From NCBI GenBank assembly GCA_034434315.1, contig DAOTZR010000057.1, positions 1 to 53,678 on the forward strand: DNA of 53,678 bases. The letters are read 5' to 3'. The translations under genes were made by a program, and so were the position numbers. Position 1 is the stretch's first letter. Each line of letters opens with the position of its first letter. The notes beneath the pieces were generated by a model. The model ran no database searches, was not told the origin of the DNA, and was given only the letters and a program-made list of their open reading frames with translations. The stretch is from Anaerolineae bacterium (GTDB lineage: Bacteria; Chloroflexota; Anaerolineae; B4-G1; SLSP01). This document shows positions 5,540 to 53,678 of the stretch, in pieces.

Positions 5540-6973
5540 ATGGACGACCCCAAAGCGCGGACCATTGATCGCAAAAGCCGTTTTGCTCTTCCGCCTCAGC
5601 GCGCTGAACTGCGGTCACCCGAAGAGCGACGGCGGGATTTCAACCCCATCACCATTCCCATGACCCTGACCCAGGCTCAGGCTGAGGCCAGCCGCTGCCT
5701 GCACTGTACCCCGGCCCCTTGCCAGCAGGCCTGTCCGATCCACAACGCCATCCCCGTGGCCCTGGGTTTTCTGGAAGATGGGGACCCTGTTCGTGCGGCC
5801 CAGGTTTACCTGGAGACCAATCCTTTTCCCGCCATCTGTGGACGGATTTGCCCCACAACCTTTTGTGAAGAAGCCTGCGTCCTGGCTAAGGTGGGTAAAC
5901 CGCTGGACACCCGGGCTTTAGAGGCCTTTGTGGCGGATGAAGCCAGCCGGCGAGGAGCGCTTCCCTCTTCGGCGCGGTCTGCCGGTATGCCGGGGCGGGT
6001 GGCGGTTGTGGGTTCAGGCCCAGCCGGTCTGACCGTGGCCGACTACCTGGCGCGGCGCGGTTACAATGTCCATGTTTACGAGCGCCATCCCTTCCCCGGC
6101 GGCCTGCTGCGTTACGGCATTCCCGGCTTCAAACTGGAGCCGCAGGTGGTGGCTCAGACCATAGCCGACCTGGAAATGCTAGGGGTAGTTTTTCATACCA
6201 ACATCACCGTGGGCCAAACTATAAGCTGGGAGGACCTGCGTACCCATTACGATGCCCTGTTCCTGGGTCTAGGCACGTCGGCCTACAGCCTGCCTGGCAT
6301 ACCCGGCGAAGACCTGCCCGGGGTTTACGGTCCTACTGAGTTTCTCGTGCGCGGTATGGTCGCTCCGGAACTTTTGCCGGAAATCTGGCAGGGCCCCTGG
6401 CAGGTTGGACCGCGCGTCCATGTCCTGGGCGGGGGCGATACCGCCATGGACTGTTTGCGCACAGCCTTGCGCCTGCCCGGCGTTCAGGAAGTCACCTGCT
6501 ACTATCGCCGCAGCGAAGCAGAAATGCCCGCGCACAAAGCCGATTACACCCATGCGCTGGAAGAGGGGGCGCGCTTTGAATGGCTAACCGCGCCGGTGCG
6601 GTTCGAGGCGGGCCCAAACGGACGTGTAGCCCGTGCTGTCTACCAACGGATGACTCTGGGCGCACCGGATGCGAGTGGGCGTCGCCGTCCCGAACCCGTG
6701 CCCGGCTCGGAATTCAGCGTGGACGTAGATACCGTCGTTCTGGCCCTGGGCTATCAGCCCGAAAGCGAACTGCTGCCAGATGGTATACAGATCACGCGCA
6801 AAGGATTGATTGCGGTGGATGGGGCCGGACGCGCGAATCTGCCCGGCGTCTTTGCTGCTGGCGACGCGGTGCGCGGGGCCGATCTGGCCGCACCTGCCAT
6901 CGCCGACGCGCTGCGCGCTGCGCGGGCGATGGAGGCCTATCTCCAGGCCAGGCAGATGACTGATGGAAGCTGA
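5540..6973 (+). CDS. Glutamate synthase small-subunit-like FAD/NAD(P)H oxidoreductase (GltD family)
   Basis: N-terminal Fe-S Cys cluster CLHCTPAPCQQACP...CGRICP and dinucleotide fold VAVVGSGPAGLTVADYLARRG, with a second fold VLGGGDTAMDC. The start at ATG 5540 is preceded by GGAGGAG. No large subunit is adjacent. Confidence 0.8.
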   Translation: MDDPKARTIDRKSRFALPPQRAELRSPEERRRDFNPITIPMTLTQAQAEASRCLHCTPAPCQQACPIHNAIPVALGFLEDGDPVRAAQVYLETNPFPAICGRICPTTFCEEACVLAKVGKPLDTRALEAFVADEASRRGALPSSARSAGMPGRVAVVGSGPAGLTVADYLARRGYNVHVYERHPFPGGLLRYGIPGFKLEPQVVAQTIADLEMLGVVFHTNITVGQTISWEDLRTHYDALFLGLGTSAYSLPGIPGEDLPGVYGPTEFLVRGMVAPELLPEIWQGPWQVGPRVHVLGGGDTAMDCLRTALRLPGVQEVTCYYRRSEAEMPAHKADYTHALEEGARFEWLTAPVRFEAGPNGRVARAVYQRMTLGAPDASGRRRPEPVPGSEFSVDVDTVVLALGYQPESELLPDGIQITRKGLIAVDGAGRANLPGVFAAGDAVRGADLAAPAIADALRAARAMEAYLQARQMTDGS

Positions 6974-7032
6974 ATCCAGCCGAGTGGCCCTGAAGCTGGA
7001 GAGTGTGCGACAATGACCTTGAGGAGGGATCT

Positions 7033-8313
7033 ATGCCGGTTACGGTTTTAGTAGGTGCTCAATGGGGGGATGAAGGTAAGGGGCGCGTTGTGGATGACTA
7101 TGCCGCGCGGGCGGACATCGTGGCGCGCTACAACGGCGGCGACAATGCCGGGCACACCATCGTGGCCGAGGGGCACACGCTGGCTTTACATCTGGTCCCT
7201 TCGGGGATTTTGTACCCGCACGTCGTCAATCTCATCGGTGCCGGGACGGTGGTCAATCCCCTGCGACTGTTGGAGGAAATCGCCATGCTGGAAGCGGCAG
7301 GCATCCCCGCCGGACCGGACCGCATTAAACTTTCCGCCGCGGCGCACCTGATTTTACCCACGCATCGCGCGCTGGACGGGGCGCATGAGAGCCGCCTGGC
7401 CGGACGGGCTATTGGCACGACCCAGCGTGGCATCGGCCCGGCCTACGCCGATAAAGCCGCGCGCATCAACCTGCGGGCCGGACAAATGCGCGATCCCGAC
7501 GCTTTCGCCAGCGCCGTTGAGGCGCTGTTGAGTACGCACAATGCTTATCTGGAAAAGCTATATGGCCTGCCCAGGGCCGATATTCCCCAGGCCGTGGCAG
7601 CGTTACGTCAGGCAGCGCAGCAACTTGCCCCCTATCTGGTGGATGGATCGCAATGGGTCGCCCAGGCGCTGGCCCTGGGCCAGCGCATCCTGTGCGAAGG
7701 GGCGCAGGGCACGCTCCTCGATCTGGATCATGGCACTTATCCTTACGTGACCAGCTCTTCGACCATCGCCGGCGGCGCCCTGACCGGCCTGGGGTTTGGC
7801 CCTGGCACCGTGGACAATGTCATCGGCGTGGCAAAGGCCTACACGACGCGCGTCGGTGCCGGGCCTTTCCCCACCGAATTGCTGGATGAGACTGGCGAAC
7901 GGCTACGCCATATCGGTCATGAGTACGGCACAACAACCGGGCGTCCGCGTCGTTGTGGCTGGCTGGATGCGGTAATTCTGCGTTACGCGGCCCAGGTCAA
8001 TGGGCTTACCGGCCTGGCTCTCACCAAGCTCGACGTGCTGAGCGGACTTCCCGAATTGAAGATCGCCGTGGCTTACGACTATCATGGAAAGCGGGTGGAA
8101 CATTTCCCGGCGGAATGGGGCAGCGCCGTGCTGGCGGATATGACGCCGATCTATGAAACGCTTCCGGGATGGGGTGAGGACCTGAGCCAGATGCGTCGGC
8201 GCGAGGACCTGCCGGACGCTGCTCAGCGGTATCTGGCGCGCATCGAGGAACTGACAGGCGTGCCAATTGTCTTTATCGGGGTAGGGCCGGCGCGCGAAGC
8301 CTTTATCCGCTAG
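7033..8313 (+). CDS. purA: Adenylosuccinate synthetase
   Basis: GAQWGDEGKGRVVD P-loop, GTTQRGIGPAY, GTTTGRPRRCGW and TKLDVL. The start at ATG 7033 is preceded by GAGGAGGG. Confidence 0.95.
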   Translation: MPVTVLVGAQWGDEGKGRVVDDYAARADIVARYNGGDNAGHTIVAEGHTLALHLVPSGILYPHVVNLIGAGTVVNPLRLLEEIAMLEAAGIPAGPDRIKLSAAAHLILPTHRALDGAHESRLAGRAIGTTQRGIGPAYADKAARINLRAGQMRDPDAFASAVEALLSTHNAYLEKLYGLPRADIPQAVAALRQAAQQLAPYLVDGSQWVAQALALGQRILCEGAQGTLLDLDHGTYPYVTSSSTIAGGALTGLGFGPGTVDNVIGVAKAYTTRVGAGPFPTELLDETGERLRHIGHEYGTTTGRPRRCGWLDAVILRYAAQVNGLTGLALTKLDVLSGLPELKIAVAYDYHGKRVEHFPAEWGSAVLADMTPIYETLPGWGEDLSQMRRREDLPDAAQRYLARIEELTGVPIVFIGVGPAREAFIR

Positions 8314-8328
8314 TGCTTTGGACTGTAT

Positions 8329-8385
8329 GCCGCCTGTTTCGCCGAGTCGTCGGGGGACCGGCTTTGCGGACAGGCGGCTTTTTTT
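8329..8385 (+). terminator. Putative intrinsic terminator after purA
   Basis: GCCGCCTGT (8329..8337) pairs with ACAGGCGGC (8370..8378) and is followed by TTTTTTT. The 32-nt loop is unusually large. Confidence 0.55.
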
Positions 8386-8530
8386 GTGCTGGATCAGGCC
8401 CCGTCATGTCAGGGAACTTGTCTTGCCAGCAGCGAAAGGGGTGATGATAGGACTGATCAGGTCAGCGCCGCCCTTTCTAAGGGTTTGAGGCAGAGACCTG
8501 GCTGGGCCAGAATGATGCAGTTTTGTCCGC

Positions 8531-11062
8531 TCAGGCGATGGGCAGGCGCACGTAGAACGTGCTACCGGGGAAGTTGACCTCATCGTGACCGGGGCTTTCG
8601 GCCCAGATACGTCCGCCGTGTGCCAGTACAATGCCGCGCGCAATGGCCAGCCCCAGGCCAGGACCGCCCCCTTTGAACTTGGTACGTCCAGAGGAATGGA
8701 ATTCCACTTCGCCGATCTGGTAAGCCGGTTCAAAAATCAGCTCCAGATACTCCGGGTCAATCCCAATGCCTGTATCTATCACGGCTACTTCCACCATAGG
8801 GACGGTATGGTCAATCACTTCTCGCCCTACGATGCGGATGGTGCCCCCATCGGGCGTGTACTTGATGGCATTGCCGATGAGCTGGTAGAAAACTTTAATC
8901 AGCAGGTTGAAATCGCCGTGAATGATGGGCAGGGATTCGAGGGATTCGTCTTGAATCAGAGTTAGTTGGCGTTCGCGAAGCGCCGTGATGTAAGGTTTGG
9001 ACGCGCTGCTGATCACGTGCGCCAGTTTGACGGGTTTGCGTGCCGCTTCGAGGGCCTCGTTTTCGATGCGGGCCACATCCAACATGCTGTTGACAATTTC
9101 CAACAGACGCTCGGTCCCGTTGCGAATGCCGGTGAGGAACTGGTAGGCCGGATGATTCTCTTTGATTTGGGCCATATGAGGCAAAACCTGAGTGTTGGCC
9201 TGGATCACGGTGAGTGGCGTGCGTAGCTCGTGAGCAGCGACCTCGATAAATTTGGTCTTGCTCTTGTAGAGCTGTTCCAGACGCTGATTGGCCTGATTGA
9301 GGGCCTCGGTGCGTTCCTGCACCATTTGCTCCAGGCGCTCGTTGAAGTCCAGGATTTCCGCATACAGACGGGCATTTTCCAGGGCAATCGCGGCCTGGCC
9401 GGCGAAGGCCTGGACGACGGTCTTATCGTCGGGCGTGAATTGTCCGACTTCGGCGCGGGTGAGCGAAATCATACCGATGACTTTGTCGCGCGCAATCAGC
9501 GGAACACCCAGCCAGGAGTGGTCGAGGGGCAAATCTTCAACTTGTTGCCAGCCGGGTTCGCTGGCGACGTCGCTGATGAGAACGGGTTCCAGCGTTGTGG
9601 CCATGCGGTGATAGACGTCTCCCTCCCGAATGGCCATGGTGGGAGCCTGGTAGTCCTGGGGATAGCCCTGGCTGGCGATCATGGCCAGGTTGCTATCTTG
9701 TTGGAGCCATATGGATCCCCGCGCGAAGGGGACAACGGTGGAAAGCTGCTCCAGGATGCGTTGGGGCACCTCTTTCATGTCCAGGCTGCTGGTGAGGGTG
9801 CGGCCCGTTTCCACCAGGATTTCGGCCAGTTGGCGTCGGCGCTTTTCGGAACGGTAGAGCTCGGCGTTACGGATGGCGATGGCGATCTGGTTGGCCAGGG
9901 TTTGCAACACCATGATGTCATCGCTGCGGAAAGCCGCTACATTTTCGCTCTGGATGTCCAGGGCGCCGAAGAGTTTATCGCCGATTTGCAAGGGGAAGAC
10001 GCATTCCGAGCGGGTGGCTGGTAGTTCGGCCAGGGCCAGGTAATCGGTGGCCAGAGTGACGTCGTCTTCGACCCGTACCTGGGCTTCACGACAGGTGCGC
10101 GTGACCAGGCTGGGGTGATCGAGAGGGATGGTGATGGCCTTATCTTGCAGGGCATCCATGCTTTCCGGGCCGGCATAGGCCCGGAGCTCCACCTGGTTCT
10201 GTTCGGAATTGATGAACCAGACGCCAACGAAATAATAGCCAAAGCGATTCCGAATCAGCCGCACCAGGAGAGGGAGCAAGTCCTTCGGGTCAAGGACAGA
10301 GGTAATTTGCTGGCCTACCTCGTTGCTCAGGGCCAGTTGCATGGCACGGCGTGAAATTTGTTCATTAGCGGACTGGAGTTCGGCGTTCAGGCGATCGCGA
10401 ATCTGAAGCAATTTTTTGAGGGTTTCCCGGCTTTCGTGCAGTTCCAGGGCCCACTGGTGGTATTTCTCATAGCTGGAGGCGTACCAGGCCGCGAACATGA
10501 ACACCTGCCCGGCGATGCTGTGAATGACGCCAGCCGAGGCGGCGGCGACTAAAATCCCCCACAACCGTAAGGGGGGGATACTTAAACGTCCAACCTGAAT
10601 GGATGAAATCAGTAAAGTGAACGCGCTGAATATGCCCAGCAAGATCCATGGCGCCCAGCGCGGGAGCATGATGCCCGCGATGATGACCAGAAGCGGCAGC
10701 CCGAAAACAGCGACATCTCCCGTCGCCCCCCCTTTGTAAATCAGGCTGAAAAGCGCCAGGGTTGAACCCAGCACAAAGACCCAGGCGGCAACTTCTTCTT
10801 TCTCTTCGTTCAAGAACCGACGGGTACCCCAAACCGTGGCGCCTAATAAAAAGCCGGGGACGAAAAGCTGGCTTAAACGCTGTCCAATTTCGTTGGAACT
10901 GCGGGCGGTAAAACTCCAGGCCAGGCTGAAGAATAGTCCTACCAGGATGGCAATCGTCAGCAGATTGAGCTGGTCATGACGTGTGGATTGTAACACGGAC
11001 CCCCGGCCCCGGGTGGGGTCGGGAATGTCCTGACTCAAGTCGGGTTCCATGCGCATGCTCAT
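8531..11062 (-). CDS. Membrane sensor histidine kinase (polytopic N-terminus, 2 GAF, HisKA, HATPase_c)
   Basis: About six hydrophobic helices in the first ~200 aa. Two GAF-like blocks each end in ...AIAIRNAELY and ...AIALENARLY. H-box AAHELRTPLT, N-box QLIGNAIKYTP, G-boxes DTGIGI and GGPGLGLAIA. Confidence 0.88.
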   Translation of the reverse strand: MSMRMEPDLSQDIPDPTRGRGSVLQSTRHDQLNLLTIAILVGLFFSLAWSFTARSSNEIGQRLSQLFVPGFLLGATVWGTRRFLNEEKEEVAAWVFVLGSTLALFSLIYKGGATGDVAVFGLPLLVIIAGIMLPRWAPWILLGIFSAFTLLISSIQVGRLSIPPLRLWGILVAAASAGVIHSIAGQVFMFAAWYASSYEKYHQWALELHESRETLKKLLQIRDRLNAELQSANEQISRRAMQLALSNEVGQQITSVLDPKDLLPLLVRLIRNRFGYYFVGVWFINSEQNQVELRAYAGPESMDALQDKAITIPLDHPSLVTRTCREAQVRVEDDVTLATDYLALAELPATRSECVFPLQIGDKLFGALDIQSENVAAFRSDDIMVLQTLANQIAIAIRNAELYRSEKRRRQLAEILVETGRTLTSSLDMKEVPQRILEQLSTVVPFARGSIWLQQDSNLAMIASQGYPQDYQAPTMAIREGDVYHRMATTLEPVLISDVASEPGWQQVEDLPLDHSWLGVPLIARDKVIGMISLTRAEVGQFTPDDKTVVQAFAGQAAIALENARLYAEILDFNERLEQMVQERTEALNQANQRLEQLYKSKTKFIEVAAHELRTPLTVIQANTQVLPHMAQIKENHPAYQFLTGIRNGTERLLEIVNSMLDVARIENEALEAARKPVKLAHVISSASKPYITALRERQLTLIQDESLESLPIIHGDFNLLIKVFYQLIGNAIKYTPDGGTIRIVGREVIDHTVPMVEVAVIDTGIGIDPEYLELIFEPAYQIGEVEFHSSGRTKFKGGGPGLGLAIARGIVLAHGGRIWAESPGHDEVNFPGSTFYVRLPIA

Positions 11063-37508: not shown

Positions 37509-37596
37509 AAAGTCAGGTCTTGCGCATAGATGGAGCATTGTCAACGCAAGGGAATCAAAACCTGGTTGAAGCTGAAAACATGGAAGGATACATCCT

Positions 37597-39447: not shown

Positions 39448-39455
39448 GCCAGGAC

Positions 39456-42938: not shown

Positions 42939-42960
42939 TCTATGCAGAAAGGAACAGTGT

Positions 42961-43413: not shown

Positions 43414-43450
43414 AACAACTCCAGAAGCTCCTGAGGCAGGGGGATCAAGT

Positions 43451-43482
43451 AAACCTGGCGCCCAGCACCGGACGCCAGGTTT
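43451..43482 (+). terminator. Hairpin after the ybjN-like gene (possible weak terminator)
   Basis: AAACCTGGCG-(12 nt)-CGCCAGGTTT, a 10-bp stem with no real U-tract. It is followed by TTGCGC-N15-TATAAT (43481..43507), a possible promoter for the next gene. Confidence 0.35.
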
Positions 43483-43631
43483 GCGCCTGTGTCAACCCGG
43501 GTATAATTGTGAGGGCAGGCTTTAACCATGATGTGTGGCCGCCTGTCGCTTTTAAAGCGGCGGACAGCCTGGGCCTGGTATGGTTTTAGGGGTAGTGTTG
43601 TGTTTATTTTAAGGCATTATTTTGAGGTTGT

Positions 43632-45158
43632 ATGGCTGATTCTACAGTACCTGTACATATCCTGGTGGTGGATGACAATCCCAACATTCGTGACTTCATC
43701 AAGGATTCCCTGCTGGAGCCACAGGGCTATCGTGTCAGCGTAGCGGTAGATGGGCAGGAGGGTGTCGAAAAAGCCCTGGAACTCAGGCCCGACCTGATTC
43801 TGCTGGATTACGAAATGCCGCGCCTGAATGGGATTGAGGTGTTGCGAGCCCTGCAAAAGCATCAGGTGATGATCCCCGTCATCCTTATCACATCCTATGG
43901 TTCGGAGTCCGTGGCCGTGGAGGTTTTCCGCCTGGGCGTGCGGGACTATGTGCCCAAACCCTTTACCGCGGAAGAGCTGTTTGCGGCCATAGACCGGGTT
44001 CTGCATCAGGTTCATCTGGAACGTGAACGCGATCAGCTTATGGAGCAGTTGCAGGTGACCAATCGGGACCTGGCCCAGAGGTTGAAAGAGCTGGACACGC
44101 TGTACCATGTGAGCAAATCCGTGACGACGCTGTACGAGCGCGAAAAACTGATGGAACGCATTGTGGACGCCGCGCTCTACATCACGGGCGCTCTGGAGGG
44201 GCTGCTGGTGCTGCTCGATCCCCAGACGGGTGAACCGCGCGTCGCCACGCATCGCATCTATGCCAACAATGAGTATCGCTCTCTGGAAAGTCGGGCCTTG
44301 ATGTTGCACGACACAGATTTGATGGTCAGCGTTCCCCTGCAATCGCGGGGTCAGGTTATCGGCGCCCTGACCATGAGCAATAAAATGAGCCGTCAGCCGT
44401 TCAGTTCACACGATCGGCTTCTGTTAAAGATGCTAGGGGACTATGCTGCAATCGCCATTGAAAATGTGCGTCTGTTAAACGAACTGGAAGAGCGCCGCGA
44501 ACGTGAGAAGCGCGAGTTGCGCACCCTGTTTGAACATTACGTGGCCCCGCAGGTCGTGGAGCGCATCCTGAAACACCCCCAGAGCGTGCAGCCTGGAGGC
44601 CAGCGCCATACCATCAGCATTCTCTTCGCCGATATTCGAGGGTTTACCGCTTTCAGTGCCCAAACTGCTCCAGAGGTTTTGATGGGGGTCTTGAATCAGC
44701 ACCTGGGGTGTGCCGCCGGTGTGATCCTGGAGGAAGAGGGTACCCTGGATAAATTCCTTGGGGACGGCGTGATGGCCTTTTTTAACGCGCCTTTGCCCCA
44801 ACAGGACTATGCTTTGCACGCCGTTCGGGCCGCCTGGAAGATTATCGAGCGCGTTCAGGCCATGCACGCGGAACTCCCGGTCCAGTACCGCCTGCCTCTG
44901 GGCATCGGTATCAGTACCGGTGAGGCCGTTGTAGGCAACCTGGGCACGTCGCATCTGGTCAACTACACGGCGATTGGCTCCACGGTGAACAAGGCCCATG
45001 CTTTGCAGGAGCTTGCTGGCCCCTGGAAGGTGCTTATCTGCCAGCGCACCTATGATTTGGTGCGCGACAAGGTGCGGGCCAGGACCCTCCCCGCCGTATG
45101 GATTAAGGGCCAGGCTCAGCCTGAGCCGGCCTACGAAATCGAAGCGCTGATGGAGTGA
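43632..45158 (+). CDS. Response-regulator receiver + GAF + class III cyclase-homology domain (variant catalytic motif)
   Basis: REC motifs [19 protein letters not shown] and VPKPF. GAF block (…[19 protein letters not shown]…[11 protein letters not shown]). The cyclase core has [18 protein letters not shown] and [10 protein letters not shown], but reads VNKAHA where VN.A.R is expected. Confidence 0.85.
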
Positions 45159-45166
45159 GACAGGCC

Positions 45167-45691
45167 ATGCCGGTCTTTTTCGATCTGGAGACGCAAAATA
45201 TTTTTGAGGACGTAGGGGGCCATTTTCCCGAACGGCTCAGGCTTTCGGTAGCGGTCACTTTCGATGACCGCACCGAAAGCTGGCGGCGTTTCACCGAGGC
45301 CAATGTGGCCGACCTGATTGCACAGTTGCAACAGGCCGACCGCGTCGTGGGGTTCAATCTGCTGGGTTTCGATTACCTGGTCTTGAAAGCCTACACGCCG
45401 CTGGACCTGAGCACGCTACCCACCGTGGACATGTTGGCTATCATCGCCCGGCAGTTGGGCTACCGTGTGAGCCTGGATGCTCTGGCGACGGCAACGCTGG
45501 GCGAAACCAAGAGCGCTGACGGCTTACAGGCCGTGCGCTGGTGGCGCGCCGGGCGCATCGAGGAGGTGTTCCGCTACTGCGAACAGGACGTTCTGGTCAC
45601 CCGGCGCCTGTATGAGTTTGGGCGCAGCTATCACTACGTTCAGTTCTACGATAAACGCTACCGGCTTCAGCGCGTTCCGGTAAACTGGTAA
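45167..45691 (+). CDS. DnaQ/PolB-type 3'-5' exonuclease-fold (RNase H-like) protein
   Basis: ExoI-like FFDLETQN, ExoII-like VGFNLLGFDYLVL and ExoIII-like YCEQDVLVTRRLY. Start is at ATG 45167, or at GTG 45155 overlapping the cyclase stop. Confidence 0.65.
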   Translation: MPVFFDLETQNIFEDVGGHFPERLRLSVAVTFDDRTESWRRFTEANVADLIAQLQQADRVVGFNLLGFDYLVLKAYTPLDLSTLPTVDMLAIIARQLGYRVSLDALATATLGETKSADGLQAVRWWRAGRIEEVFRYCEQDVLVTRRLYEFGRSYHYVQFYDKRYRLQRVPVNW

Positions 45692-45702: not shown

Positions 45703-46278
45703 CTACGTGTCCACGTTCCACTGCAACGGGTGAATGCCGCTCAGCACCACCTCGCCCTCCGGGGTGATGATGACCTCTGCTTCGGGCACGCTGCTGAGCG
45801 CTGCCAGTGTGTAGCGCGATGTAAGGAAGTAGACCTCTTTGTTGGCCGATCCGCGCAGGTCGCGTGCCAGGCGCTGCGTGGCCAGGTACCGCCCGCAGAT
45901 CAGGACATCTACATGCGCCAGCAGCGCCTGGACTTCGGGCATGGCCTCCAGTTCCGTTCGGGTGTAGCCGGTAAAAAGGATGACCGACAGCGTCGAGGCC
46001 GCGCGTACCGCTTCCAGCAACCGCCGCAAAGGGCGCACCTGTTGGAGTGGCTCGCCGCCGCTGATGGTGAGACCTTCGAGCTCAGGCAAAGCCAGGATTT
46101 GCCGGGTCAGGTCTGCCACCGACACGGACGTGCCGCCCTGGGGAGCGTGGGTTTGCGGATTGTAACATCCCCGGCAGTTCAGGGTGCAGCCCTGGACCCA
46201 AAGCACAGCGCGCAGGCCCGGCCCGTTGGCCGCACTCCGCGGCCAGAAACTGTGGATTCTCAGCTCGTCTTCAGCCAT
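45703..46278 (-). CDS. NrdG-like radical-SAM activating enzyme (no glycyl-radical partner in the window)
   Basis: NGPGLRAVLWVQGCTLNCRGCYNPQTH (CxxxCxxC cluster in an NrdG-type context), LTISGGEPLQQ, ILFTGYTRTEL, DVLICGRY and LRGSANKEV. It aligns by eye along its whole length with E. coli NrdG. Confidence 0.8.
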   Translation of the reverse strand: MAEDELRIHSFWPRSAANGPGLRAVLWVQGCTLNCRGCYNPQTHAPQGGTSVSVADLTRQILALPELEGLTISGGEPLQQVRPLRRLLEAVRAASTLSVILFTGYTRTELEAMPEVQALLAHVDVLICGRYLATQRLARDLRGSANKEVYFLTSRYTLAALSSVPEAEVIITPEGEVVLSGIHPLQWNVDT

Positions 46279-46466
46279 GTCTGGTTGGGCAGACTTTCAT
46301 CCGTCGCATAAGCTGCAGGCAGCATGTCGCGCGCCAGAATTTCGTTGCCCAGGGCCTCCTCCAATGCGCGGGTCAGGTCCAGGCAGGCCATGCCCTTGAC
46401 GCCGTGCACCTGGATGGTGACTTCGCCATTGGGCGCGATAATGATTTCGATTTCCTGATACTCCAT
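46260..46466 (-). CDS. DUF2997-family small protein
   Basis: The 68-aa MEYQEIEIIIAPNGEVTIQVHGVKGMACLDLTRALEEALGNEI... begins at ATG 46466. A GAGGAGG RBS overlaps the DUF1257 stop (TGAGGAGGAAGCCATG). It is hidden inside the 171-aa ORF 46260..46775. Confidence 0.7.
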   Translation of the reverse strand: MEYQEIEIIIAPNGEVTIQVHGVKGMACLDLTRALEEALGNEILARDMLPAAYATDESLPNQTWLKTS

Positions 46467-46476
46467 GGCTTCCTCC

Positions 46477-46860
46477 TCAGACCATGCGCCGCAAGCGCAG
46501 ATGGATGCAGCCCTTCTCGTCCACTTCCTCCCCGGCCAGGGTGAATCCCTGCGCTTCCAGACGCTGCCGGGCCAGGATGGTGGCGTACCGTTGGGTGAGC
46601 TGGCGGGTAAACTCGTTGGCTTTGAGTCCCCGGACACCCCACCAGTCGGCGACGATTTCGTAGCCATCCGGCGTCGCCTGGAAGCCGATTTCGTAACTTG
46701 AGCGGCTGGGACGAAACTTAAAGTCAACCCGGTGTTTGGCCCCTCCAAAACCACGGATTGCGCCGGGGCTGTCACTTACCGTGTAGCCCATCTGCTCCAA
46801 CGCAGCAATGAGCGCGGCTTTATCTTTGAGACGAATTTTCAAACGGGTGAAATGGGACAT
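46477..46860 (-). CDS. Ycf35/DUF1257-family protein
   Basis: MSHFTRLKIRLKDKAALIAALEQMGY...IRGFGG...YEIGFQATPDGYEIVADWWGV is the DUF1257 signature. GAGGAG RBS. Confidence 0.75.
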   Translation of the reverse strand: MSHFTRLKIRLKDKAALIAALEQMGYTVSDSPGAIRGFGGAKHRVDFKFRPSRSSYEIGFQATPDGYEIVADWWGVRGLKANEFTRQLTQRYATILARQRLEAQGFTLAGEEVDEKGCIHLRLRRMV

Positions 46861-46883: not shown

Positions 46884-48464
46884 TCAGGTCAAACGGATGA
46901 CAGGGTAATCCTTGTACACTAGCTTGCCGGTGCGCAAATCACGCGCTGTGAGCAAGAGCCGCTTGTTGGCATCAATGCTGAAAACAATTTCAAAACATTT
47001 CTCGCCCTGGTGCGCTGGCGGGTCAGCTACCAGGAAGGTGGGCTGGTGTTCATTCATCCAGAAGTACTGGCGGCGGTATTGCTCTTCGGCACTGGTGGGC
47101 GTCAGGCGCGCCGCTCCACTGGGGTCGAACACCAGCTCGAAAGCCCCTACGGCCTGGGTCCGTGTCTCACTCACCTCGAACAGTGCAACGCCCAGTTGGA
47201 TCTGTTGATCGTACGAGGCTTTGACGGTGAGCCGCGCTATGGCTTCCGCCGGATAGGGAGTGCCGCGCTCAACAATCGTCCAGTAGTCGTAATCCTGCTT
47301 TTCGCGATTCACATAGCGGATGGCGTAGCTGTGTTGAATGTGATCGTAAAAATCCATGCCGGCAGCAAAGGCCGCTGCCCCACGGGCAATGGCATCCAGG
47401 GGCCGTTTCAGCCGGACCCGCTCCGCGCCAAAACTGCGTTGCAGCAGACTTTGTACAGCCGGAATCTGACTGCTGCCTCCCACCATCAAAATCGCCTTGA
47501 TGTGGTCTTCATCGTATCCCCGCTCATAAGCGCCGTTCAGAGCGCGGCGCAAGGTGCGCTCGATGGTGGTAAAAGCGCCGTGACGTTCCAACAGGGCTTC
47601 GAACTGTTCACGGGTGTAATCGGCTGCCAGCACCGTTCCGGTTTGAGGATCCACAACGCTGATGGTCGCCTGGGGGTGCTGCGAAAGGTGGACTTTGGCC
47701 TGCTCGCACTCCAGCAGTAACCAGGTACTGACGCGGCGCACCAACTCGTCAGCATCCGAACGTTGATGGCGCTGCAGGACATCCATGAACAGCCATTGGT
47801 CGAGCACCGCGCCCCCAAGGTCCGCTCCCGCTTTGCCCAACACGCGGCAGCGCTGGCCGCTGGTGTTCTCCTCAATCAAGACCACCGCCGTGTGCACGGT
47901 GCCCCCTCCAAAATCGAAAATCAGATACACATCGCCTGGGCGAATCGGAGCGCCGTACCCAAGGGCCGCCGCCGAAGGCTCATCAATCAGGCGGAAGCGC
48001 GGCATATCGTTTTGCTGGGCAATGCGCGTCAGCCAGTCCTCATAGTGCTCAAAAGCTTCCACCGGAACGCTGAAAGCCACTTCTTCGGCAGGATCCTGGC
48101 CAGTTTCCTGCCGGGCGAACAGGAGCACAGTGCTGAGAAAGTCCTGCGCTGCTTCATAGGGGGTGATGTCGCGGTCACCTACGCGGACGCGATAGGGGCT
48201 GCGCTGCGCGATATACCGCTTCATCCACCGAAAAGTGCCGGGCGCATGGGCCAGGTTCTGCTGCAGCACTTGCGCCCCCAGCCAGCGGCGTCCATCCGCC
48301 TGGTAATGGATGAGCGAGGGGATCACGGCTACCTGTTCACCCCCCTGAGGGTAAAAATGGCTGTAATCGGGGATGAACACGGGTTTCCCTTCCTCGGCCA
48401 GGGCATCCCACAGGGCGATAACCGTGTTGGAGGTGCCGAAATCAATGCCCAACCGGCCTGCCAT
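46884..48464 (-). CDS. Non-canonical Hsp70-family ATPase lacking the helical lid
   Basis: Actin-fold motifs GIDFGTSNTVIA, LIDEPSAAALGYG, IFDFGGGTVHTAVV and MVGGSSQIPAVQ. The SBD-beta-like end IVFSIDANKRLLLTARDLRTGK terminates the protein at 526 aa. A strong GGAGGGAGGAG RBS is present, and the start lies 23 nt inside the GrpE-like gene. Confidence 0.85.
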   Translation of the reverse strand: MAGRLGIDFGTSNTVIALWDALAEEGKPVFIPDYSHFYPQGGEQVAVIPSLIHYQADGRRWLGAQVLQQNLAHAPGTFRWMKRYIAQRSPYRVRVGDRDITPYEAAQDFLSTVLLFARQETGQDPAEEVAFSVPVEAFEHYEDWLTRIAQQNDMPRFRLIDEPSAAALGYGAPIRPGDVYLIFDFGGGTVHTAVVLIEENTSGQRCRVLGKAGADLGGAVLDQWLFMDVLQRHQRSDADELVRRVSTWLLLECEQAKVHLSQHPQATISVVDPQTGTVLAADYTREQFEALLERHGAFTTIERTLRRALNGAYERGYDEDHIKAILMVGGSSQIPAVQSLLQRSFGAERVRLKRPLDAIARGAAAFAAGMDFYDHIQHSYAIRYVNREKQDYDYWTIVERGTPYPAEAIARLTVKASYDQQIQLGVALFEVSETRTQAVGAFELVFDPSGAARLTPTSAEEQYRRQYFWMNEHQPTFLVADPPAHQGEKCFEIVFSIDANKRLLLTARDLRTGKLVYKDYPVIRLT

Positions 48465-48945
48465 CGGCTCCTCCCTCCGTGCTGGCGCTGACGCCGGGCC
48501 GGGCTATCACCCGTCCGCGATAGCGCAGACCTGGCACGCACACCTGGGCGCGCTCACCGGGCCGGAGTGGCGGCCCTACAGGAATGTGCAGCGTGGGGTC
48601 GAAGCGTACCGCCATGCCGATGGGCTCGCTTTCTTCCAGCCCGTGGCTCTTGAGGACGGCGAGCAAGCGCTGCACAATGCGCCACAGGTCCTGCGCCGAA
48701 ACAGCCTGTCCCTGTTCGATGAGCGTGCCTTGCAAGATCAGTTGCGCTATGGGCGCTCCCAGGTCGAGGAACAAAGCCTCCACCCGTGCCACAACCTGAG
48801 CCTCGAGGGCCTCCCCGCCCTGGCGACGCCTTTCGGCCTCGCATTCCTGCAGGGCCAGGCGCAGGCTCTGCACCTCGGATTTCAGTTTCAACAACTCCAT
48901 GGCGTCCTGATCCGTTTTTTCGGCTTTGCGTGACCAGAATGGCAT
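48442..48945 (-). CDS. GrpE-like nucleotide-exchange factor
   Basis: N-terminal coiled coil followed by the GrpE-type C-terminus GLEESEPIGMAVRFDPTLHIPVG...GERAQVCVPGLRYRGRVIARPGVSAS. ATG 48945 is preceded by AGGAGG. The ORF-track start at 48993 is a GTG overlapping the upstream stop. Confidence 0.65.
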   Translation of the reverse strand: MPFWSRKAEKTDQDAMELLKLKSEVQSLRLALQECEAERRRQGGEALEAQVVARVEALFLDLGAPIAQLILQGTLIEQGQAVSAQDLWRIVQRLLAVLKSHGLEESEPIGMAVRFDPTLHIPVGPPLRPGERAQVCVPGLRYRGRVIARPGVSASTEGGADGRPVGH

Positions 48946-48989
48946 GACGTCCTCCTGAATGATTATGTCCCGGCTGGGCCGATGGGCCC

Positions 48990-51092
48990 TCACCCTTCCA
49001 GCTCGATGTCGAACTCGCCCACCACCAATTCTGGCGCTGCTTCCAACTCGATTTCATAGCGTCCGCGATGCAGCAGCACCAGGATGGTGAACTCCAGGGC
49101 GCGGCGGATGGCCGGGTCCAGCGTCGGGCGCTCGGCCAGCCAGCGCAGATGGCCGGCACTGGCGGGATTCAATTGGGCCATGGGCCGGGCGAACAAATAG
49201 GGCAGCTCCAGCAGGCGCAAATCCCAAAGGGCGAACGAGGTTTCGCTGGTTCCCAGGGCCATGAACGCGCCATCGGCTGAAACCTGCAGTCCGGTGACGT
49301 GTCCACTGTGCACATCCAACTCCAGTACCGGCGCCCAGTTTTCCAGATCGACCCCGCGCAACAGGCCGCTGCTATCCAGACTCAGTAACAGATTGTAGCG
49401 CGGCAATGCGGCCAATCCCACCACGGTAGCCGGATGCCGGGTCAGCTCGCGTTTCGGCGCCGAGCTCATGCTCTCCAGGTCCAGCAAGACCACCTGTCCC
49501 TGATGCATACCCAGCACCAGGTCTTTCTGAGCCAGGGTGGCTGTTTTCACCCGACCATTGGCAAAGCGCCAGCCCACTTCCTTGAGATTGGGCAAGGTCA
49601 GGTGCGTGATCAGATGGCCCAGGAACACCAGGCTCTGGTCGTGGACCGGGCAGAGCTGGTGTGCCCAGCCATGCATCTCGCGCTCGCCCAGCAGCCTCCC
49701 CGAAGGAAGCTCCCACAGTCGCAACGTGCCCTCGCGTCCGGATGAAACGCCCCAGGCCTCCCCAACCACAGCCACACTGGCCCGCCCTCGATGCTGTCCC
49801 AGGGCGCGCGTCTCTTCGGGGCGCTTGAGATACACGCTGACGGGCGCGTCAGCGCGTTGGGCGCGTTCGCTGCACAGCAGCCATTCGGTCGGGGTGAAGG
49901 CGACCTGATGGACCGCGTGCTGGAAGCGGGTGAACAGGGCCGTCCGCTGCGCCTTCACGTAATCCCACAGCACGACCCGCCCGGTGCCGATGGCCGCAGC
50001 CAGCAGAGGGCTTTGCGGCGCGAAGGCGACCGCATTCACGCGGCCCGGTGCGCGCACCAGGGCCATCTGTTGCAGCAAGGCCTGCTGCTTGCGGATCTGA
50101 TCGGGCACGGCGAGCACTCCCGCCCGGACCAGGGCGCCCAGTTTGACCAGCAGGTCCTGATCCCCGGCAGCGGACGGTTGCCAGCCTGCAGCCAGCAGGC
50201 GTTCCATCACCCAGGCGCTCCAGGCGGTATGCACCTGCGGGACCAGCTCCCATAAAGCCGGCCATTGCTCTTCCTTGACCATAATGTCCAGCACCAGCTG
50301 TGTTTCAGCAGGCGTGAGGGCCGCAGCCCGGAGCCGGTTTTCGCCACCTGTGAGAATGGGCAGGAAATCCGTCCGTCCGGCTCGTCGCAGCCGCTCGCGG
50401 ATGCGCGCGCGCAGGGGTTCAGTGGCGGTTGTGTAAAGTGCGCGCAGTCGGCGCCGGTCGAAATCCAGGGCGTCGTACGCTTCCCAGCGCTCCTGGAGCA
50501 ACCAGTACAGCGCCCGTTCCTGTTCATCCTCAGGTTCGAACGCCTGGTTGGCCAGCGCCTCCAAAGCCAGAGGATGGTCACTTTGGCGCGCCAGGTCCCA
50601 CAGGGCTTCCAGCGCCTTTTTGCGCTTGAGACCCAAAAGCGCCCGGCGCGCCCGTTCGGCTATCAGGGGATCCGGGTCGGCACAGGCCTCTAACAGAGCG
50701 GGTAAGCTGGCTGCTCCTATGCGTTCGGCTAGCTCCTGCGCTTTGTTCTGGAAGAGGAACGTGAGGACCCGCACATGGATCGGAGCTTCCGCGACCCAGC
50801 CCTGTTCGCGCAAAAACTGGCTCAGATGGGGCGCGCGCGTCCGACTCCAGATCTGGCAAATGTGATCGCGTTTTATGGGCGCATCAATTCGGCGCAACCT
50901 GGCCCGGACCAGGGCCTGGACCTGGGGATCGGGATGTTCCAGGGCCTCGACCAACGCATCCAGTACCGGCAGCGAATTGCCGGCCAGGGTCAGAAGCCAG
51001 GCGGCCAGGCGTTGGACCCAGGGGGCCAGGGCGGGGAGCGCATTCCAGGTGAGCCAGGATTTTAACCAGGGCATGAGCGTGCCGGATATCAC
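48990..51092 (-). CDS. HEAT/ARM-repeat + WD40-like beta-propeller protein
   Basis: The N-terminal half has HEAT-like units (LEHPDPQVQALVRARLRR, ACADPDPLIAERARRALLGL). The C-terminal half has WD-like blades (GRVVLWDY, GTLRLWELPSG, GLLRGVDLEN, TSFALWDLR). The GTG start at 51092 overlaps the ycf46-like stop (GTGA). An alternative ATG is at 51074. Confidence 0.65.
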   Translation of the reverse strand: MISGTLMPWLKSWLTWNALPALAPWVQRLAAWLLTLAGNSLPVLDALVEALEHPDPQVQALVRARLRRIDAPIKRDHICQIWSRTRAPHLSQFLREQGWVAEAPIHVRVLTFLFQNKAQELAERIGAASLPALLEACADPDPLIAERARRALLGLKRKKALEALWDLARQSDHPLALEALANQAFEPEDEQERALYWLLQERWEAYDALDFDRRRLRALYTTATEPLRARIRERLRRAGRTDFLPILTGGENRLRAAALTPAETQLVLDIMVKEEQWPALWELVPQVHTAWSAWVMERLLAAGWQPSAAGDQDLLVKLGALVRAGVLAVPDQIRKQQALLQQMALVRAPGRVNAVAFAPQSPLLAAAIGTGRVVLWDYVKAQRTALFTRFQHAVHQVAFTPTEWLLCSERAQRADAPVSVYLKRPEETRALGQHRGRASVAVVGEAWGVSSGREGTLRLWELPSGRLLGEREMHGWAHQLCPVHDQSLVFLGHLITHLTLPNLKEVGWRFANGRVKTATLAQKDLVLGMHQGQVVLLDLESMSSAPKRELTRHPATVVGLAALPRYNLLLSLDSSGLLRGVDLENWAPVLELDVHSGHVTGLQVSADGAFMALGTSETSFALWDLRLLELPYLFARPMAQLNPASAGHLRWLAERPTLDPAIRRALEFTILVLLHRGRYEIELEAAPELVVGEFDIELEG

Positions 51093-52621
51093 GGTTGGAG
51101 TTGCAATGGCACGAAGCGCTGTTGGGCCTCACGGACTTCACGGAAAGAAGCCGATTGCGCTCGCCCCTCCAGGAGCCAGGCGCGCAGCGCTTCTACCTGC
51201 TCGCGCTGAGAGATGGACAGCGGCACCAGGCGTCTCAGGGCTTCGAGGATGTCGTTGGTAGTAAACTCGCGGTTTTCGCCGAAACCGTTATACATCGCAT
51301 CAATGATGGCCTGTTCGATTTCCGCTCCGGTATACCCTTCAGCCTGACGGGCCAGGCGCGGCAGGTCGAAGTCCTGGGGCAGGCGCTTGCGCTTACGGAG
51401 ATGGACGGTGAAAATCTCCTCGCGCTCCTCCTGCGTAGGCAGGTCGAGGAAGAAGATCTCGTCGAAGCGCCCCCGACGTAGCAATTCGGGGGGGAGGCTG
51501 CTGATGTCGTTGGCGGTTGCTACCACGAAACACGGGGCGGTTTTTTCCTGCATCCAGGTGAGGATGGTTCCAAAAACGCGCGTGCTGGTGCCGCTATCCA
51601 GACCGCCATGGGCCAGGGCCTTCTCCATCTCATCAATCCACACCACACAGGGGGCTATGGTTTCGGCCAGATGCAAAGCCCGGCGCGTGCGCTCCTCCGA
51701 CTCGCCCACCAGACTGCCGAAAAGCGCGCCGACATCCAGGCGCAACAAAGGCAAGCGCCACAATCCGCCAATCATCTTAGCCGTGAGGCTTTTCCCCGTG
51801 CCAGGGATGCCGATGAGGGCAATGCCCTTGGGCGCTGGCAGTCCGTAATCACGGGCCTCTTGCGTGAAAGCACGTTCACGCAGGCGCAGCCAGTTCTTCA
51901 ATACGCCCAACCCGCCGACATCCTCCAGGGTTTCGCTCGCGCTGGAGAATTCCAGGGCTTCATGGCTGCGGATGAGCTGTTTTTTCTCCTCGGTGATCGC
52001 CTCAATATCACGCTCGTCCAGCTTCCCATTGCGGACAAGACAGCGAGCGAAGGCGCGCTGCGCCTGGGCCAGGGTCAGGCCCAACGCCGCCTGCACCAGC
52101 TTCTCCCGCCCCAGCGGGGTCAAATCAGAACGAACCCCCGGCGTCTGGAGTAACTGTCCCAGGGCGGCATCCAGTTCGGCGGCTGAAGGCAGGGGCAGTT
52201 CAGTGAGGACCGCCTCGTCGCGCAGTTCGAGCGGAACCTGGCCGGCTGGCGTGAGCACAAGCAGGGATTTCCGGGTATAACGCAGGTCCTGAGCTGTGCT
52301 GCGCAATTTGCGCTTCACCTGGGCATTGTTCCACACCTCATGGAAGTCCTTCAACACCAGCAACAGGGGATCCGAAGCCTTTTCGACATAGTCCAGGGCC
52401 TGGAGCGGGTCGCGGATGGCCGGGGGGAAGGAAAACGAACCACTGAGCGGCTGAAAGCCGTTGGCCAGGTCCCAGGTCAGGGCAGGGCGCTTCTGCCGTT
52501 CGCAGACGTTCTGGAGCATGCGCAGTGCCCGCTCCTCTTCTACCGTGTTGAGGACAATCAACGTAAAACGCGCGCGCAAGTACAAATCCAGTTGCTCTTC
52601 AAAAATCAACCTGTCTCCCAT
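51089..52621 (-). CDS. Ycf46-family AAA+ ATPase
   Basis: Classical AAA core with Walker [13 protein letters not shown], Walker [14 protein letters not shown] sensor-1 region and [16 protein letters not shown]. The ~240-aa N-domain ([13 protein letters not shown]...LTWDLANG...LLLVLKDFH) and the ~510-aa length match my recollection of plastid/cyanobacterial Ycf46. GGAGG RBS. Confidence 0.8.
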
Positions 52622-52823: not shown

Positions 52824-53447
52824 TCAGAGCTTCCTCAGAGCAAACACACATTCTGTGGTCTGGGTCTCCCCGACGGCTGCACAGCTCGTCTCGGTGACCT
52901 CAAAATAATCCTCCAGCTCGGCCCATTCCAAAGCCTGCTGCAGGAAGCCCAACGTGCTGTGACAGACAGGCTGGGCCTCATGCTTCCGGCCCCAGCACGC
53001 CGGGCAGGGGGCAACATGATAGAGTAGCACCCCGTTTTCTTCGGTGAGGTACGTGCGTACCGTGCTCTGTTTGCTCATGCCCTTGATGATGGCTTCCAAA
53101 AGGGTTTTAATCCGGGGGCGCGGGGGCAAGAGCTTGAACGCTACACCGGCCAGGCCCAAGGCGCTCCCCAATTGTTCGATGGCGGCGTTAAAAGCCGCAC
53201 GTCCGGCGCGGAGCGCTAGAGCCCGTCCGCCGCGCGGACCGTACATCTCTTCCAGGACCTGGTTCATGCGCGAGAAATCGTCCAGGCTTACTTCCAGGGC
53301 GTCATTGTAGTCGGGCGGATTGGCAATCCAGGCCTCCAGATTCGCCAGACGCAGCACGGCATGCAACCCATGCTGCCCGATAACCTCAGTAATGGCGTCA
53401 AGGTAAATCCGTGTGCGGCGGTTAGATTGCCTGTGTTGTGTTTCCAT
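52824..53447 (-). CDS. V4R (4-vinyl-reductase-like) small-molecule-binding domain protein
   Basis: The C-terminal V4R Cys pattern is VAPCPACWGR...PVCHSTLGFLQQAL...EVTETSCAAVGETQTTECVF. The start was moved to ATG 53447 (METQHR) because a consensus promoter lies inside the longer 243-aa ORF. The RBS is purine-rich (GGAAAGGACGGGGAAG). Confidence 0.65.
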   Translation of the reverse strand: METQHRQSNRRTRIYLDAITEVIGQHGLHAVLRLANLEAWIANPPDYNDALEVSLDDFSRMNQVLEEMYGPRGGRALALRAGRAAFNAAIEQLGSALGLAGVAFKLLPPRPRIKTLLEAIIKGMSKQSTVRTYLTEENGVLLYHVAPCPACWGRKHEAQPVCHSTLGFLQQALEWAELEDYFEVTETSCAAVGETQTTECVFALRKL

Positions 53448-53495
53448 CTTCCCCGTCCTTTCCTGGATGGAACCCTTATCACAAAGGTTATATAG

Positions 53496-53524
53496 ATTAT
53501 AGCTATTCTTGGGTAAGAATGCAA
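53496..53524 (-). promoter_or_regulatory. Near-consensus sigma70 promoter: TTGCAT-N17-TATAAT (minus strand)
   Basis: On the plus strand, ATGCAA at 53519..53524 is the -35 and ATTATA at 53496..53501 is the -10. The spacer is 17 nt, and the -10 lies 49 nt upstream of the V4R ATG. Confidence 0.65.
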
Positions 53525-53678
53525 CTGTGTTAAAGTCCGGGGCTTGTGCTGCCATGGATCGTGCAAGGCTTCAATTGGTTTAAGGAGCTGGAAAAGGCGG
53601 GGCCTTCCTGTGGTCTGGGTGGGAAAGGCCGAGCACACTTCCTCACACACCCACCAGCCTGCCAACCCCTCCCCAGCC

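Follow-up and report, generated by a model that had tools for sequence, protein, structure and literature searches.

The window analyzed here is a stretch of 53,678 nucleotides (nt) from an Anaerolineae bacterium (GCA_034434315.1, contig DAOTZR010000057.1, positions 1 to 53,678), and all positions are given in its numbering. It encodes an Hsp70-like ATPase that ends where the lid of DnaK begins. Tree and profile comparisons place this protein in a distinct, deeply branching Hsp70 clade, and its gene belongs to a conserved six- or seven-gene module, so far undescribed, that also encodes a HEAT-WD40 scaffold protein and a Ycf46-type AAA+ ATPase. We read the lidless Hsp70 as a possible subunit of a J-independent, scaffold-targeted remodeling machine with two ATPases, an explanation to which we give slightly less than an even chance. 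In the accepted view, Hsp70s rely on J-proteins to stimulate their ATPase and to deliver clients. A clade that retains the catalytic residues, the peptide pocket and mostly a GrpE homolog, but has no lid, no hydrophobic linker and no linked J-domain, provides a natural test case for an Hsp70 that works independently of J-proteins.

The Hsp70-like protein and its phylogenetic placement

The protein consists of a nucleotide-binding domain (NBD) and the beta part of a substrate-binding domain (SBD-beta). Its gene and two family-specific segments are located as follows.

48464..46884, minus strand: lidless Hsp70-like ATPase, 526 amino acids (aa), NBD and SBD-beta; PF00012, 101 bits (cut-off, 20.6)
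47331..47354, minus strand: DFYDHIQH motif, residues 371-378, in place of the DnaK linker DVLLLD
47037..47126, minus strand: SBD-beta insert of ~30 aa, residues 447-476, family-specific; low model confidence

An earlier note, made from the letters of this DNA, had proposed that the protein keeps the ATPase motifs, that it has an SBD-beta-like segment, and that it ends at the start of the lid. All three proposals were borne out. (i) The catalytic residues D8, K82 (K70 in DnaK), E162 (E171), D184 (D194), and T189 (T199) are unchanged in 16/16 orthologs. (ii) In a phmmer search against the PDB, residues 1-369 aligned to the NBD of DnaK (1.7e-25) and residues 478-514 to beta7-beta8, the last two strands of its beta-sandwich. 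(iii) Profile-profile alignment (hhalign, 16 orthologs versus DnaK, HscA, and HscC) equated residues 1-526 with DnaK 1-508 at a probability of 100, with the SBD-beta matched to DnaK 393-508; its end thus coincides with the beginning of lid helix A in DnaK. The AlphaFold2 (AF2) model agrees with this alignment, since its C-terminal domain is all-beta, part of it modeled with low confidence, with no helical lid and no helix past residue 465. Foldseek matched the model end to end with DnaK, and also with engineered lid-less forms of DnaK and BiP and with the naturally lid-less Ssz1. In the alignment, every ortholog terminates in ...YPVVKLT.

Three features of canonical DnaK are without counterpart in this protein, namely, the SBD-alpha lid, the C-terminal tail, and the hydrophobic linker DVLLLD. 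The linker residues V389/L390/L391/L392 are replaced by H/I/Q/H in 16/16 orthologs, within the invariant DFYDHIQH. The ~30-aa insert corresponds to an hhalign gap relative to DnaK between beta6 and beta7 and contains an invariant FWMNE..TFL (F468-E472, T476-L478). When DnaK sites are mapped onto the family, the salt-bridge residues K55, R56, and E264 become L, Q, and V, the position of D201 is occupied by H or D, and N170 and D481 become D and N, respectively. The floor of the peptide pocket is still hydrophobic (F426/V436/I438/I472 become V/I, L, I/L/V, and F), and the arch residues of this pocket are not retained. Invariant basic residues of the SBD are R383, R400, K415, R453, R465, K501, and R502. 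As a matter of pure speculation, the D/H-rich DFYDHIQH might resemble a metal-binding or pH-sensing cluster; the module also encodes an Fe-S radical-SAM enzyme.

To place the protein among known Hsp70s, we built a maximum likelihood tree of Escherichia coli DnaK, HscA, HscC, and YegD, the DnaK of the same genome, and 45 lid-less members (the window protein, 6 close orthologs, and 38 cluster representatives). DnaK, HscA, and HscC formed a clade with 99% support, to which YegD was sister with 95% support, and all lid-less proteins of ~525 aa were located on the other side of the tree. In accordance, the protein missed the NCBIfam cut-offs for DnaK (TIGR02350, 109.3 bits versus 822.55; NF001413, 106.5 versus 648), HscA (TIGR01991, 104.2 versus 708.55), and YegD-type proteins (NF008673, 39 versus 331). 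It thus groups with none of these characterized subfamilies. Its identity to DnaK is ~25%, and the genome holds a separate true DnaK (PF00012, 869 bits) along with a canonical GrpE on contig C187. An exhaustive search (E <= 1e-30) returned 276 clusters at 50% identity, nearly all of them composed of proteins of 510-550 aa. There is also a sister group of lid-less Hsp70s with a C-terminal extension of ~350-400 aa, totaling 880-946 aa (P0219, P0222, P0231, P0245, P0249, and others).

A conserved gene module and its distribution

The Hsp70-like gene lies in a tight run of seven genes on the minus strand (45.7-52.6 kb), transcribed in the order AAA+, HEAT-WD40, GrpE-like, Hsp70-like, DUF1257, DUF2997, and radical SAM. 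The coordinates, lengths, and junctions that had been given for the Hsp70-like, GrpE-like, and HEAT-WD40 genes are correct, including the 23-nt overlap of the GrpE-like and Hsp70-like genes; in addition, the start of the HEAT-WD40 gene (51092) overlaps the AAA+ stop (51089). The partners of the Hsp70-like gene are listed below, along with their frequency in 47 complete loci with enough flanking sequence and their median identity to the window protein.

52621..51089, minus strand: Ycf46-type single-ring AAA+ ATPase, 510 aa; PF00004, AAA_lid_3, similarity to the CDC48 family; 39/47 loci, 70%
51092..48990, minus strand: HEAT-WD40 scaffold protein, 700 aa; Pfam matches to WD40 and HEAT_2; 44/47 loci, 30%
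48993..49052, minus strand: C-terminal tail of the scaffold, residues 681-700, ending in EIELEAAPELVVGEFDIELEG; candidate docking peptide
48945..48442, minus strand: divergent GrpE homolog, 167 aa from the ATG at 48945 (183 aa from the GTG at 48993); 27/47 loci (57%), 33%
46860..46477, minus strand: DUF1257 protein (Ycf35-like), 127 aa; PF06868, 1.3e-18; 41/47 loci, 45%
46466..46260, minus strand: DUF2997 protein, 68 aa; PF11211, 3.7e-14; 41/47 loci, 53%
46278..45703, minus strand: NrdG-like radical-SAM protein, 191 aa, last gene of the module; PF13353, 7.1e-32, and PF04055; 32/47 loci, 54%

The Hsp70-like protein itself has a median identity of 59% across these loci, and the partners are encoded on the same strand as the Hsp70 with the exception of a single HEAT-WD40 copy. 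The operon had been regarded as peculiar to this genome; comparison of the 47 loci shows instead that it is one copy of a module conserved in multiple phyla. Loss of the lid, the GrpE homolog, and the missing J-protein are thus traits of the whole family and not of this genome. We did not find the cluster described in the literature on its gene families, on lidless bacterial Hsp70s, or on gene neighborhoods of this type.

There are more than 1,000 homologs of ~530 aa that are 60-83% identical to the window Hsp70. Scanning one genome per species retrieved 207 relatives, which belong to the Chloroflexota, Cyanobacteriota, Armatimonadota, Verrucomicrobiota, Planctomycetota, Acidobacteriota, Actinomycetota, Bacillota, Moduliflexota, and others. 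The module is rare: it is found in ~1% of genomes from at least 10 phyla, and it was detected in 2/301 sampled genomes of the phylum of the window and in 3/251 cyanobacteria. Phyla are intermingled in the Hsp70 tree, and the copy of Pseudanabaena galeata is carried on a plasmid of 226 kb, where RefSeq names the proteins "Hsp70 family protein" and "nucleotide exchange factor GrpE". Since the module is rare, the tree mixes phyla, and one copy is plasmid borne, these comparisons point to horizontal spread.

Several individual copies deserve mention. On the P. galeata plasmid (CCNP1313, pPg_01, 121362-140945), the module is broken up by RelE/ParE and PIN toxin-antitoxin genes and includes three or four WD40/HEAT paralogs, one of which (WP_281009473.1) retains only the first half of the tail motif described below. 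Near-identical Hsp70-like genes (branch lengths, 0.003-0.017) occur in L077, L078, and L083, labeled as Eremiobacterota (one metagenome-assembled genome [MAG]) and Burkholderiales (two), which points to mis-binning or very recent transfer. The copy of a Crocinitomicaceae (Bacteroidota) MAG (L046) is nested in the cyanobacterial clade. In a cyanobacterial locus, L097 (G412:C101), the genes for the AAA+ (one TGA and one TAG) and the scaffold (one TAA) contain in-frame stops, and no Hsp70-like gene was found in the G412 genome; this copy is possibly decaying, or else an assembly artifact.

The AAA+ of the module has homologs with 70-86% identity, some of which are named as members of the SpoVK/Ycf46/Vps4 family. 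It is 45-50% identical over its full length to an AAA+ present in 164/251 cyanobacteria, the label Ycf46 being taken from the names of relatives and not from a reference sequence. The module-type AAA+ proteins form a distinct subgroup with 63-72% identity.

The patchy distribution, the mixing of phyla in the Hsp70 tree, and the plasmid copy with interspersed toxin-antitoxin genes would also suit a conflict or defense system or a stress-survival island, in which the fast-evolving WD40 scaffold would serve as a sensor and the two ATPases as transducers. The scaffold is indeed only 30% identical between loci, compared to 59-70% for the ATPases, and the AAA+ resembles IetA/IteA. However, this resemblance is generic, and PADLOC gave no system-level match, the Hsp70 reaching only 19.8 bits with the candidate PDC-M61B. 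The module has no recognizable effector (nuclease, protease, TIR, or pore-former), 50,697 phage records contained no ortholog but only DnaK-like matches of ~25% identity, and its core proteins show more conservation than is usual for genes in an arms race. Furthermore, GTPases and tubulin, around which Kaur et al. found Hsp70/GrpE conflict systems to be organized, are both absent here. We consider a conflict or island role unlikely.

Two features of the surrounding DNA touch on the limits of the module. A V4R-like gene (52824-53555, minus strand; 243 aa; PF02830, 27.9 bits against a cut-off of 31) is located ~200 nt upstream. It was considered as a module member or sensor and rejected, since it is absent from 80/80 related loci, and it is probably a mere local neighbor. 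On the other side, tail-to-tail with the module, positions 29945-45691 (plus strand) form a dense signaling island with multi-GAF/PAS histidine kinases, two GAF-cyclases, a REC-GAF-cyclase, a YbjN-like protein, and a DnaQ-like exonuclease.

J-proteins, the GrpE-like factor, and the scaffold tail

A six-frame scan with PF00226 identified a single J-domain in the whole 95%-complete genome, that of the housekeeping DnaJ on contig C46, and none in the window. A hidden Markov model (HMM) built from two J-domain seeds, used together with phmmer, recovered this DnaJ, whereas neither the window nor any of 83 related loci (1.64 million translated residues in total) yielded a match above 11 bits. Nine larger genomes encode 2-10 J-proteins each (PF00226); in the five with a measurable distance, the nearest is 60 kb from the cluster, and in the other four no J-protein is encoded on or near the cluster contig. 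The earlier claim that neither an HPD tripeptide nor a J-domain is encoded in the operon therefore stands for the J-domain but not for the tripeptide, which occurs once, at residues 53-55 of the HEAT-WD40 protein in a HEAT-repeat loop. We asked whether this HPD, in the first HEAT repeat, might form a cryptic J-like loop and dismissed the possibility on conservation: it is present in ~3/26 orthologs, and only its D is conserved.

The lack of a linked J gene would be mechanistically meaningless if the lidless Hsp70 used the housekeeping DnaJ, or another J-protein, in trans. A DnaJ is available in the genome, and R158, the equivalent of DnaK R167, which contacts the aspartate of the J-domain HPD, is invariant in 16/16 orthologs. 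The VLLL linker is needed for J-stimulated ATPase activity in DnaK, and its replacement by an invariant HIQH, along with the changes of N170 to D and of D481 to N, argues against use of DnaJ. Canonical dnaJ genes are frequently unlinked to dnaK (PMC13580251). A J gene was found in 0/83 loci and near none of the clusters in the nine genomes, despite six other tightly linked partners, and the genes of specialized Hsp70s, for example HscA and HscC, normally adjoin that of their own J-protein (PMC8215388). On balance, help from DnaJ in trans appears rather improbable.

The second cofactor of DnaK, GrpE, has a counterpart in the module. Alone, the window protein scores 16.7-17.0 bits with PF01025, which is under the cut-off of 25.8, so that its identity rests on a profile of 22 aligned genes located directly upstream of the Hsp70 in related loci. 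This profile matched solved GrpE structures over the full length (4ANI, 3.1e-9; 1DKG, 2.8e-7; also M. tuberculosis GrpE [8GB3] and human GrpEL1), and it also picks out canonical grpE, adjoining dnaJ, in other genomes. PF01025 is matched by 19/22 of the orthologs (best, 4.8e-12), and the window protein scores 146.6 bits with the ortholog HMM. Its open reading frame is open back to the GTG at 48993, and the ATG at 48945 gives a protein of 167 aa starting with MPFWSR...; judging from the orthologs, which begin with M..W..., as in the 47%-identical neighbor L038, the ATG is probably the true start.

The GrpE-like call thus withstands profile searches, and the gene is a true homolog that overlaps the Hsp70 gene. 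Its description as a dedicated factor must be qualified, since it is dispensable: it is absent from 20/47 complete loci (43%), including those of Anaerolinea thermophila and Longilinea arvoryzae. In six genomes lacking it that were searched whole, only the canonical GrpE and no second GrpE-like copy was found. Its presence and absence require at least 8-12 changes on the Hsp70 tree. Lobe IIB is the lobe of Hsp70 on which GrpE acts, and seven of the ten Hsp70 columns most tied to the presence of the GrpE-like gene fall within residues 252-278 (DnaK 265-295, lobe IIB). This clustering is a hint from the alignment, given that the association is not significant after phylogenetic correction (7 independent pairs; median p, 0.2). 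Together with the 23-nt gene overlap, it is an indirect indication that the GrpE-like protein may serve this Hsp70 as nucleotide exchange factor. By the logic of Hsp70 nucleotide exchange, ADP release should depend less on an exchange factor where DnaK-type salt bridges are missing (PMC8215388), and the optionality of the GrpE-like gene fits the loss of these salt bridges in the family.

An Hsp110-like role, in which the lidless protein would act through NBD-NBD dimers as a co-chaperone or exchange factor of canonical DnaK instead of binding clients itself, was also considered. Such a role has been proposed for bacterial "DnaK derivates" (PMC13580251), and a canonical DnaK is encoded in the same genome. 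Nevertheless, the possession of its own GrpE homolog in 57% of loci, the retained hydrophobic peptide pocket, and the linkage of its gene to the AAA+ and the scaffold, not to dnaK, make this role very unlikely.

The AF2 model of the HEAT-WD40 protein (pLDDT, 90.7; pTM, 0.75) shows an alpha-solenoid over residues 1-336, followed by a WD40 propeller (341-624) and three helices (626-680); the remaining tail (681-700) is disordered (pLDDT, <50). Its closest whole-architecture matches are the scaffolds VPS15 and Raptor. The tail is the best-conserved stretch of a family that otherwise shares 30% identity. Three of its residues (G692, E693, and I696) are invariant and D695 is conserved at 90% or more, and a two-part motif, [FY]DIE[IL] and GE[FY]DIE[IL]E separated by ~8 residues, closes 48/52 scaffold orthologs. 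The motif is also kept in the plasmid copies of P. galeata (L094) and in a cyanobacterial variant that lacks the WD40 part (L095). The latter locus (G424:C1:3070000-3089999) has a permuted gene order (GrpE-like, Hsp70, DUF1257, DUF2997, AAA+, scaffold), and its scaffold (594 aa; 8708..6924) has HEAT repeats but no recognizable WD40 and ends in SFDIEIESDLYEFNSDETFNIEIE. Terminal peptides that are conserved despite being disordered usually mark docking motifs, and on its sequence the scaffold tail looks like a candidate docking peptide. We conjecture that its alternating hydrophobic and acidic residues would suit a beta-strand-binding groove lined by the invariant Arg and Lys residues of the SBD.

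To follow the scaffold beyond complete loci, we examined 14 genomes with an Hsp70 locus that seemingly lacks the AAA+ and/or the HEAT-WD40 gene. A tail-bearing protein was present in 14/14 and a module-type AAA+ was encoded elsewhere in 13/14. Among the 251 cyanobacteria, tail-bearing proteins were detected in two and a variant tail was read directly in a third (G424); each of these three genomes also encodes the module-type AAA+. These counts make the scaffold an obligate partner within the module. Its constant association (44/47 loci and 14/14 split genomes) and its docking-type tail lend circumstantial support to a role of the HEAT-WD40 protein in place of a J-protein, a proposal that competes with use of DnaJ in trans and with the assignment that follows.

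The same data bear on a different assignment, in which the HEAT-WD40 protein serves the AAA+ as substrate adaptor and its tail docks on the Ycf46-type hexamer, in the way that SspB, an AAA+ adaptor, docks on ClpX through its C-terminal tail. The Hsp70 would then act separately, either upstream, as DnaK does with ClpB, or on DUF1257/DUF2997. AAA+ adaptors typically carry a C-terminal docking peptide of this disordered but conserved kind, the start of the scaffold gene in the window runs over the stop codon of the AAA+ gene, and the tail-bearing gene is located beside the AAA+ in G567, G568, G569, G570, and also G572. However, it is located beside the Hsp70 gene and away from the AAA+ in G562-G564 and G566, whereas G565 and G574 have one tail-bearing copy at each of the two sites. 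The tail-bearing gene accordingly accompanies the AAA+ about as often as the Hsp70, and gene linkage does not decide which of the two the scaffold serves. In addition, the tail was not found in ~160 cyanobacteria that have only the ordinary Ycf46-like AAA+, and it is therefore not a general Ycf46 partner. We regard the adaptor assignment as doubtful but as a serious contender.

Proposed mechanism and comparison with known systems

In the J-independent machine that we favor, the Hsp70-like protein would be an ATP-driven clamp on one dedicated partner or client, most likely not a general folding chaperone, and would cooperate with the Ycf46-type AAA+ unfoldase. The HEAT-WD40 scaffold, not a J-domain, would provide the targeting, and its disordered acidic-hydrophobic tail is a candidate for binding to the basic SBD-beta, much as Zuotin inserts a pseudo-substrate into the lidless Ssz1. 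Where present, the GrpE-like factor would speed ADP release via lobe IIB; in lineages that have lost it, nucleotide exchange is probably intrinsically fast, because the salt-bridge lock of DnaK is not conserved. A more specific version, in which the tail recruits the lidless Hsp70 without a J-domain and a client (DUF1257/DUF2997 or a radical-SAM target) is handed to the AAA+ unfoldase, is rather unlikely. The data show the anatomy of the proteins, their homologies, the lack of J-domains, the linkage of the genes, and the conservation of the tail, whereas we infer the partner bound by the tail, the client, and the cellular role; for the last, our best guess is a dedicated protein-remodeling machine, with a conflict or stress-island role as an alternative to be reckoned with.

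A number of points weigh against the machine as proposed. (i) The tail could equally dock on the AAA+, given that at least 4 split genomes pair the tail gene with the AAA+ and leave the Hsp70 alone. (ii) The generic HEAT+WD40 scaffold fold gives no specific tie to an Hsp70. (iii) The invariant R167 equivalent and the housekeeping DnaJ make help from a J-protein in trans possible. (iv) The AF2 model of the Hsp70-like protein is moderately confident (pLDDT, 71.5) and falls below 50 at residues 433-474, and the mapping of sites onto DnaK derives from a profile alignment at 25% identity. (v) The lobe IIB association, as noted above, is not significant after phylogenetic correction.

If the more specific version, with handover of a client to the AAA+, is true, it would represent a new way of targeting an Hsp70 and would provide the first physical partners for Ycf46 and Ycf35, long-orphan proteins of plastids and cyanobacteria. 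The module ties an Hsp70 to a Ycf46-type AAA+, DUF1257/Ycf35, and DUF2997, which are conserved in cyanobacteria and plastids. Since cultured strains carry it (L. arvoryzae KOME-1, P. galeata CCNP1313, on its plasmid, and Geminocystis sp. CENA526), the interactions are directly testable.

The module can be compared with several known systems. (i) With DnaK-DnaJ-GrpE it shares the actin-fold NBD with all catalytic residues, an SBD-beta with a hydrophobic pocket, and an adjacent gene of the GrpE family. It differs in that its Hsp70 forms a separate clade without a lid, with HIQH in place of VLLL, with K55/R56/E264 lost, and with a 30-aa insert in SBD-beta, in that its cluster has no J-protein, and in that 43% of loci do without the GrpE-like gene. 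(ii) The conflict systems described by Kaur et al. in 2020 combine GAP1-N2 or DO GTPases with tubulin and with FNIII proteins that carry a fused DnaJ or TPR (PMC7159879). Both they and the module have an additional Hsp70 accompanied by a GrpE of its own, outside a housekeeping gene neighborhood, but these GTPases, tubulin, and FNIII-DnaJ/TPR fusions are absent from the module. (iii) Ycf46, Ycf35 (DUF1257), and DUF2997 genes are known from cyanobacteria and red-lineage plastids, and in cyanobacteria the DUF1257 and DUF2997 genes are adjacent to each other (PMC4284462). The AAA+ of the module resembles the common cyanobacterial one at the 45-50% identity given above; however, the ordinary genes of cyanobacteria are not accompanied by an Hsp70, a GrpE-like gene, or a tail-bearing scaffold of this kind. 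(iv) The bacterial "DnaK derivates" of Myxococcales and others, for which the Hsp110-like co-chaperone role was proposed, have a deleted lid and an altered linker (PMC13580251, FEBS J 2026). They are like the module Hsp70 in being bacterial NBD-containing paralogs with these two changes, but that review does not cover the present clade, its GrpE partner, or its gene module. (v) HscA/HscB and HscC/DjlC are dedicated Hsp70 paralogs with a narrow client set and adjacent partner genes, as is the case here. HscA and HscC keep (shortened) lids, have their own J-proteins encoded next to them, and need no GrpE (PMC8215388), whereas the window Hsp70 is the reverse, with GrpE present and the J-protein absent. 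(vi) Ssz1/HSPA14 of the ribosome-associated complex (PDB 6SR6) is a lid-less Hsp70 too, and 6SR6 and 7X3K were among the fold matches. Its SBD-beta is filled by a peptide of a fixed partner, and it acts as part of a complex, not as a free chaperone; that the module Hsp70 binds the scaffold tail in a similar way is a conjecture. Ssz1 is eukaryotic and its partner Zuotin is a J-protein, whereas the partner in the module would be the HEAT-WD40 protein, and the Hsp70 it would recruit has its catalytic residues intact.

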